NCBI GenBank assembly: GCA_050185705.1
Contig: JBFWZD010000014.1
Location: 32,147 to 96,146, forward strand
Length of the DNA stretch: 64,000 nucleotides
Direction: 5' to 3'
DNA from: Nitrospira sp.
GTDB lineage: Bacteria; Nitrospirota; Nitrospiria; Nitrospirales; Nitrospiraceae
Positions 30,954 to 31,063 of the stretch are shown here, piece after piece; position 1 is the first letter of the stretch, and every line of letters starts with the position of its first letter. The notes below the pieces were generated by a model that was not told the origin of the DNA, made no database searches, and worked only from the letters and a program-made list of their open reading frames with translations. The position numbers and the translations under genes are program-made.

Positions 30954-31063
30954 CTCGTTGAGCGGCGGAACCTCCCGCAATTATGCCAACGATGACACCT
31001 CTTGTGCCTATTCCAACGGCGGAACTTCCCGCACTTATTTTAAAGGCGGGACCTCCCGCCTTT
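30954..31063 (-). repeat. Three direct copies of the last 25 nt of aclA, each with a palindromic core
   Basis: Copies at 31035-31059 (native REVPPLK*), 31008-31032 (REVPPLE*) and 30954-30978 (REVPPLNE); core GCGGGAnnTYCCGC. Confidence 0.8.

Follow-up and report, generated by a model that had tools for sequence, protein, structure and literature searches.

Tandem copies of the aclA 3' end between aclA and acnA in Nitrospira: a probable stack of former gene tails

Introduction

Bacterial VNTR (minisatellite) loci change their copy number by slippage or unequal crossing-over. The aclA-acnA junction of Nitrospira studied here resembles such arrays in its head-to-tail arrangement and fixed period, in the variation from 0 to 5 copies between relatives, in the occurrence of hybrid units (locus L016) and in the stronger degeneration of the distal units. 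It differs from them in that the unit is exactly the last codons of the gene plus the stop, in that the units are not homogenised and differ at most synonymous sites, and in that new units enter on the gene side only. REP/BIME palindromes and intercistronic stem-loops stabilise upstream mRNA segments, e.g. at malE-malF, and tandem GC-rich hairpins right after a stop codon inside an operon are also what is found at aclA; however, REPs are dispersed in many copies per genome, whereas the aclA motif is present at one locus, though some relatives hold a multi-copy module in this spacer. Tandem back-up in-frame stop codons downstream of a primary stop are likewise of a known kind. In-frame stops do follow the native aclA stop, but here a whole eight-residue tail is repeated with each of them.

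Among the systems that we compared, the closest parallel to a displaced gene end that differs synonymously appears to be icd of E. coli carrying e14 or phage 21, where a displaced icdC fragment is found (Hill et al. 1989, as described in PMC13626634). As far as the account given there goes, this fragment is an untranslated 3'-end copy of a metabolic gene that lies downstream of it with mostly synonymous or conservative differences, as at aclA, and recombination between the two icd ends yields a chimeric functional gene (PMC13626634). The same account places a 15-kb prophage with a site-specific integrase between the two icd ends (PMC13626634), whereas the aclA copies abut at 27 nt and are up to five deep.

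Here we analyse this junction in the window (the whole 64,000-nt stretch of Nitrospira DNA under study) and in its relatives. We propose, as a reasonably probable reading, that the locus is a recombination-built stack of fossil aclA 3' ends whose oldest units have partly been co-opted as RNA structure.

Results

On its minus strand, the window carries aclB (32946-34142), aclA (31035..32930), acnA (28599..30845) and a gene for a monomeric isocitrate dehydrogenase (26343-28574), i.e. the Nitrospira-type reductive-TCA gene string. The aclA gene encodes the ATP-citrate lyase alpha subunit of 631 aa (Pfam Citrate_synt, Ligase_CoA and CoA_binding). Its product ends ...NYAAPKRREVPPLK* (asterisks denote stops), and its C-terminal 254 aa match Chlorobium AclA 6nzy (E=3e-116) with the tails aligned. 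The aconitase encoded by acnA has 748 aa (Pfam Aconitase and Aconitase_C). The spacer between aclA and acnA is 189 nt long, and the array sits at the aclA stop and in this spacer. Directly upstream of aclB, on the same strand, there is a gene for a 655-aa subtilase (Peptidase_S8) with a proprotein-convertase P domain (34424-36391).

The last nine codons of aclA (RREVPPLK and the stop, 27 nt) are followed by four more in-frame units on the minus strand. A sequence-only reading of this stretch had reported three copies of the aclA tail with a palindromic core. Indeed, all three are present on the minus strand and are the sole matches to GCGGGARGTYCCGC in the window (31046-31059, 31019-31032 and 30965-30978), where 0.14 matches are expected and three or more were obtained in 0 of 100 shuffles. 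Recomputation reproduced its comparison of the native tail with the first copy: the two are identical at 18/24 positions, or 19/25 if the preceding G is counted, and differ by five synonymous changes, TAA to TAG among them, and one non-synonymous change. The 10-bp arms that it described in the native copy are perfect (AAAGGCGGGA/TCCCGCCTTT). The array is larger than had been thought, as the supposed 29-nt spacer between two of the copies is itself a degenerate unit, and a fifth unit of 21 nt lies behind the third of the reported copies.

The native tail unit (31035..31061) reads AGG CGG GAG GTC CCG CCT TTA AAA TAA, i.e. RREVPPLK*, and represents the perfect-palindrome allele GCGGGAGGTCCCGC. 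Flanking A3 and T3 runs stretch its palindrome to 10 bp, a variant common only to the window, L045, L083 and L126. Unit r1 (31008..31034), GTG CGG GAA GTT CCG CCG TTG GAA TAG or VREVPPLE*, is a displaced former tail in early decay. Unit r2 (30981..31007), GCA CAA GAG GTG TCA TCG TTG GCA TAA or AQEVSSLA*, is older and degenerate; its orthologues in L017 and L020 still read AREVPPLK*. In unit r3 (30954..30980), TTG CGG GAG GTT CCG CCG CTC AAC GAG or LREVPPLNE, the stop is lost, and throughout the clade the unit is preserved, forming the 5' half of a hairpin. The 3' half of this hairpin is provided by the 21-nt unit r4 (30933..30953), TGG GGG AGC ATG CCG CCC TAA or WGSMPP*, a tail copy without the Leu-Lys codons, in the place of which relatives have WEVPP* or WRDVPL*. 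All units are in the aclA frame, in which the minus strand reads YAAPKRREVPPLK*VREVPPLE*AQEVSSLA*LREVPPLNEWGSMPP* and the array itself RREVPPLK* VREVPPLE* AQEVSSLA* LREVPPLNE WGSMPP*. Tandem Repeats Finder returned a period of 27, 3.6 copies and 0% indels.

The motif is specific to this locus. In the 4.5-Mb genome, GCGGGARGTYCCGC has three exact matches, all at aclA, and its one-mismatch matches are at the level of the control (15 vs 13 in the reversed control). When long ORFs were screened for a repetition of their last 27 nt after the stop, aclA was the single outlier among 6125 (19/27 identical; the next values were 17 and then 15). A genome-wide REP/BIME element is ruled out by the confinement of the motif to one locus, and a tail repeat as a general property of the genes of this genome is ruled out since aclA is the sole such ORF of 6125.

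A 44-codon ORF on the plus strand (30943-31077; MLPHSLSGGTSRNYANDDTSCAYSNGGTSRTYFKGGTSRLFGAA*) runs antisense through the array, and the equivalent frame is open in all array-bearing relatives. This frame is open across the arrays because the Arg (CGG) and Pro (CCG) codons are reverse complements. An antisense small protein with YFNGGTSR repeats, whose third codon positions are common with those of the sense frame, was rejected: position 9 is purine-only and position 19 varies freely, a pattern of the sense frame only. No start codon of this ORF was consistent across the relatives.

To follow the array beyond the window, we collected junctions from 60 related genomes, 80 genome contigs and 80 metagenome contigs; the related loci carry the titles Nitrospira or Nitrospiraceae. 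This resulted in 160 distinct junctions with a located acnA start, 155 of which were parsed in full. In all 160, acnA is the next gene after aclA, across a spacer of 12-297 nt, and 153/160 relatives have the protein tail RREVPPLK*. The spacer is hypervariable across the 160 junctions, with at least 10 unrelated sequence types. These types are patchy on the coding-sequence tree, which indicates frequent recombination.

Between one and five extra tail copies are carried by 49/155 fully parsed junctions. Identities between the native tail and the first 24-mer after the stop fall into two groups, one of 6-11 (background) and one of 15-22 (copies). Copies are found with at least 10 spacer types that are unrelated to each other and lie scattered across the coding-sequence tree, and each copy-bearing spacer type that was compared is also known without copies in relatives. 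Of two isolates, NS4 (L091) carries one copy and BLG_1 (L084) none. Another family of the order, f3, has copies too (L032 and L217); in the more distant families f2 and f4, neither copies nor any insert at the aclA-acnA junction were found. No array contained two identical units, and with 15-22/24 identical positions between the native tail and the first copy, the units within an array are not homogenised, i.e. there is no concerted evolution.

In several lineages, the copies can be traced to native tails of relatives. The first copy of L109 is identical to the native tail of L112 (25/25) and the spacer behind it is also the same, while the native tail of L109 differs from its own r1 at seven synonymous sites. 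Similarly, r1 of L021 matches the native tail of L054 at 23/24 positions vs 18/24 for its own native tail, r1 of L019 matches the native tail of L013, and r1 of L027 has the rare TGA stop in common with the native tail of L185. The native tail of L063, which has no front unit, is r1 of the window clade (window, L045, L047 and L083) with the same synonymous codons; L063 shares its upstream haplotype with the window (2 differences over 75 nt) and also with L011, from which it differs by a single 27-nt unit. Thus, as described for e14 in icd, the expressed end is a new one and the displaced copy the earlier end of the gene in L109/L112, L021/L054, L019/L013, L063/window clade and L027/L185. A formal test of this relationship on ten matched pairs was weakly positive (mean +1.3 nt, p=0.09), and displacement rests mainly on these clear cases. 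Since the copy beside the spacer corresponds to what is the native tail in a relative without copies, new tails evidently enter on the gene side in these lineages and the old ones are pushed downstream. The native tail of L016 looks like a hybrid of the native tail and r1 of L019. Overall, native tails and first copies differ by 148 synonymous and 43 non-synonymous changes, and 132/191 differences are at third codon positions; the copies look synonymously recoded because each unit was once the expressed tail of a different allele.

To estimate how the copies change after displacement, we compared orthologous copies in 13 independent genome pairs with alignable spacers. The copies had 0.112 differences per site of the non-synonymous type vs 0.167 of the synonymous type (Fisher p=0.10; rate ratio ~0.63), and the non-repeat spacer of the same pairs had 0.121 differences per site. 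In the native tails of these pairs, the corresponding values were 0.005 and 0.248. We conclude that displaced copies decay close to neutrally, at about the rate of the spacer; the rate ratio of about 0.63 would still be compatible with a modest codon-level constraint. Counted by rank from the gene, a perfect REVPPLK* was found in 18/49 copies at the first position, 7/27 at the second, 1/15 at the third and 0/8 at the fourth. The native tail changes faster at synonymous sites than the copies that share its spacer, which is in keeping with an expressed tail that is often overwritten by recombination.

The aclA/acnA region is a recombination mosaic. Breakpoint mapping with L109/L112 and other pairs was uninformative, as species-level genomes are 5-15% diverged throughout. 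When the window was compared with L063 over the 3' 1 kb of aclA and the 5' 900 nt of acnA, the final 120 nt of aclA had 1-4 differences per 60 nt vs 10-15 further upstream, and a 180-nt stretch of acnA (about 300-480) had zero differences. As judged from this alignment, the mosaic indicates recent recombination tracts that end near the tail.

The RNA of the window spacer folds well (z = -3.2), with the native unit pairing with r1. In the window clade (21 sequences), r3, r4 and the next 85 nt are conserved and adopt one consensus fold. According to RNAalifold and pair counts, r3 and r4 form a hairpin (30938..30978, minus strand), in which GCGG pairs with CCGC and UUCCGCCGC with GUGGNGGAR. In the 21 relatives, helix 1 of this hairpin is 100% and helix 2 97.9% paired, and two pairs change on both sides. 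A second domain of the structured acnA leader (30853..30937, minus strand) has the apical hairpin GGGGAG-CACAA-CUCCUU and a closing helix that touches the Shine-Dalgarno AGG. Seven pairs change on both sides in its helices 4-7, and the closing helix 3 is without covariation. Of the 37 pairs of the leader consensus, 97.5% of the cells are paired (41-52% in slid controls), and both partners have changed in nine pairs, against 4.4 in shuffles (1/500). Covariation thus backs a cis-RNA for r3, r4 and the downstream domain, but not for r1 or r2. The many G-U pairs imply that the structure belongs to the sense RNA.

No terminator-like sites were found in 30500-31400, and the native unit has just UUUAAAAU after its stem instead of a U tract. 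The minus strand nearby has no promoter consensus, and the search against Rfam 15 gave no match beyond a chance-level hit (E=6.3) to an lncRNA model on the other strand.

Spacers without copies are strongly structured as well (median z = -2.4; 65% below -2). In the copy-less L036 and L038 (G035 and G027; e.g. G035:C16:116910 and G027:C5:137263), a GTGCTGAGTAACGAGTGCTGAGT module opens the spacer right after the aclA stop. It has three sites in G035 and five in G027 (≤3 mismatches; none in the reversed control) and is a low-copy, REP-like dispersed hairpin. Since copy-less spacers are structured and some hold a hairpin module, a folded intercistronic RNA seems to be the rule at this junction, with old tails as one supply.

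Discussion

The stack of former ends could have arisen as follows. The tail RREVPPLK is near-invariant, and its usual code, CGG CGG GAR GTN CCG CCG, is a GC-rich palindrome with a hypervariable spacer behind; the palindrome follows from the Arg codon CGG and the Pro codon CCG being reverse complements. We infer that recombination at this last patch of homology repeatedly sets a fresh 27-nt tail-plus-stop ahead of the resident unit. This might proceed by tandem duplication and subsequent allelic overwriting of the expressed unit, or by register-shifted homologous recombination between diverged alleles. The old tail lands right behind the new stop, untranslated, and decays at roughly the rate of the spacer. 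In the window, r1 and r2 are such decaying former tails, and r3 and r4, the two oldest, have been fixed as a stem-loop in the acnA leader, which fits a general need for stable RNA structure in the intercistronic spacer.

On this account, earlier 3' ends of a key carbon-fixation gene can persist behind it as a legible fossil record. Untranslated tail copies with mainly synonymous differences, a pattern that could otherwise be mistaken for hidden translation or for scars of mobile elements, can thereby be explained without invoking selection. The account also marks the aclA-acnA junction as a recombination hotspot in Nitrospira and makes the structured acnA leader, built partly from old tails, a candidate control point between the halves of the reductive TCA operon.

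A hairpin array was among the explanations proposed in the sequence-only reading, and in its full form all units would be kept as RNA stem-loops that shield the aclBA portion of the transcript, serve in its processing or adjust read-on into acnA, with tail duplication as the source of hairpins. The folding of the window spacer with its pairing of the native unit and r1, the strong structure of spacers in nearly all lineages whatever their sequence, the better palindromes in the native tails of copy-bearing genomes and the REP-like multi-copy hairpin modules in the same spacer of some relatives agree with this proposal. So does the third base of the linker that follows each stop, which extends the stem: it is G in 34/39 copies and changed in 1/35 comparisons. 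However, stem sites 6 and 15, which are third codon positions, vary uncompensated, as their partners 13 and 4 vary in 0/39 and 2/39 copies, and the displaced copies change at the rate of the spacer with the stem positions included (0.127 per site). The array also has neither a terminator-like U tract nor an Rfam match. The proposal holds for the distal copy, which together with the next unit forms the covariation-backed conserved hairpin, and we consider it unlikely that the whole array is maintained in this way.

The linker and the palindromic allele bear on another reading, for which we see rather little probability: a dedicated and as yet undescribed process of gene-end copying, in which a 27-nt cassette inserts ahead of the resident tail and passes from one Nitrospira lineage to another. 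This cassette would be G CGG GAG GTC CCG CCN YTR AAA TAR with two trailing bases. The two bases after each stop (e.g. 31033-31034, 31006-31007 and 30979-30980) are almost never the CG or AG expected from simple in-register duplication, and substitutions accumulate in this dinucleotide at about three times the rate of the remaining copy sequence (13/41 vs 35/313, p=0.001). The allele with the perfect palindrome, CGN GAG GTC CCN, is native in 17 genomes, and copies are present in 17/17 of these vs 32/138 others (Fisher 3e-10, a value that ignores phylogeny). Its confinement to copy-bearing genomes could reflect either a more specific mechanism or selection for the hairpin. These two features and the single-unit difference between L011 and L063 are compatible with gene-end copying, and none of them requires it.

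Two simple sources of the linker were discarded. Phase-shifted simple duplication is at odds with the linker rarely matching the dinucleotide with which the downstream spacer begins (by eye), and selection against C after the stop with the C that looks common there in copy-less relatives (by eye, uncounted). TC, the most frequent linker, is shared by unrelated clades and by members of another family (L032, L217).

The synonymous character of the differences between native tails and first copies (148 vs 43) could also mean that spare tails are kept protein-ready by selection, either because they are translated on readthrough of the aclA stop or because they serve as a reservoir for the expressed tail after slippage. 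Such selection would be in line with the two-fold site at position 9, which is A or G in 39/39 good copies, with the start of 40/46 first copies exactly 3 nt past the stop and in frame, and with the stop kept in 35/49 first copies, among which TAA, TAG and TGA interchange. Native tails with copies prefer the TAG stop (25/29 vs 31/69, a comparison that ignores phylogeny), and in L018, where r1 is frame-shifted, one readthrough event would pass over it and terminate with REVPPLK*. In pairs with both copies intact, 7/178 non-synonymous-type vs 18/105 synonymous-type sites differed (p=0.0003), but this subset is biased, being defined by few non-synonymous changes; the less conditioned comparison of orthologous copies gave the spacer rate, with a ratio of 0.63 and p=0.10. 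Perfect copies are also found past two or three stops or out of frame (L017, L042 and L094), i.e. beyond the reach of selection on readthrough; the stop is lost in 14/49 first copies and the exact REVPPLK* is present in just 18/49. A double-tailed AclA is fixed in 0/187 relatives. The synonymous bias itself is accounted for by the displacement of former native tails; since, in addition, orthologous copies decay near-neutrally, we dropped the synonymous excess between native tail and copy as proof of selection on the copies. Maintenance of spare protein ends is therefore improbable. Among perfect first copies, only those of L042 and L094 have left the frame of the native stop (+1 and -1); both are from MAGs labelled 'MFD', and their frame shifts may be assembly indel errors.

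The main explanation that had been proposed, att-type scars of integrative elements that target the 3' end of aclA and supply it with a new tail, for which e14 or phage 21 in icd would be the model, is very improbable. The palindromic core with its 2-nt centre would suit it, as would the cassette-like front unit by which L011 and L063 differ within one upstream haplotype (2/75), the palindromic allele ahead of different resident tails in several clades, and the two post-stop bases that every unit seems to bring of its own. Replacement of the tail is borne out, as copies are former tails behind newer synonymous ones in L109/L112, L021/L054, L019/L013 and L063/window clade. The elements, for which an alignment of spacers across relatives had been suggested, did not appear: none of the 160 distinct junctions with a located acnA start has an element, an integrase or any gene inserted between aclA and acnA. 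Furthermore, the units abut in an exact 27-nt register, whereas integrase excision restores a single site and not tandem sites, and the motif is at a single locus in the genome. The sequence-only reading had named an invariant spacer free of insertions and a motif common genome-wide as the outcome that would refute it. The result was mixed: no insertion was found, but the spacer is hypervariable and the motif is not genome-wide. An array of DNA operators for a regulator of acnA/idh transcription is least credible of all, since the points in its favour, a locus-specific motif and three to four dyad-symmetric, nearly identical sites spaced by about 2.5 helical turns ahead of acnA, are set against a dyad symmetry that is automatic from Arg and Pro codons, r1 and r2 that are not conserved, a conserved r3/r4 pairing that leans heavily on G-U pairs and hence works in sense-strand RNA only, and the lack of a promoter-like site nearby on the minus strand.

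Two minor features of the tails were noted. The native tail of the window, CCU UUA AAA UAA (31038-31047, minus strand), includes, directly ahead of the stop, the heptamer U UUA AAA, which has the form of a classical -1 frameshift site. In L016 (G025:C39), the aclA 3' end appears frame-shifted about 25 codons ahead of the stop (...PAVRLPGKLCGPKRREVPPLK*), which is probably an assembly error.
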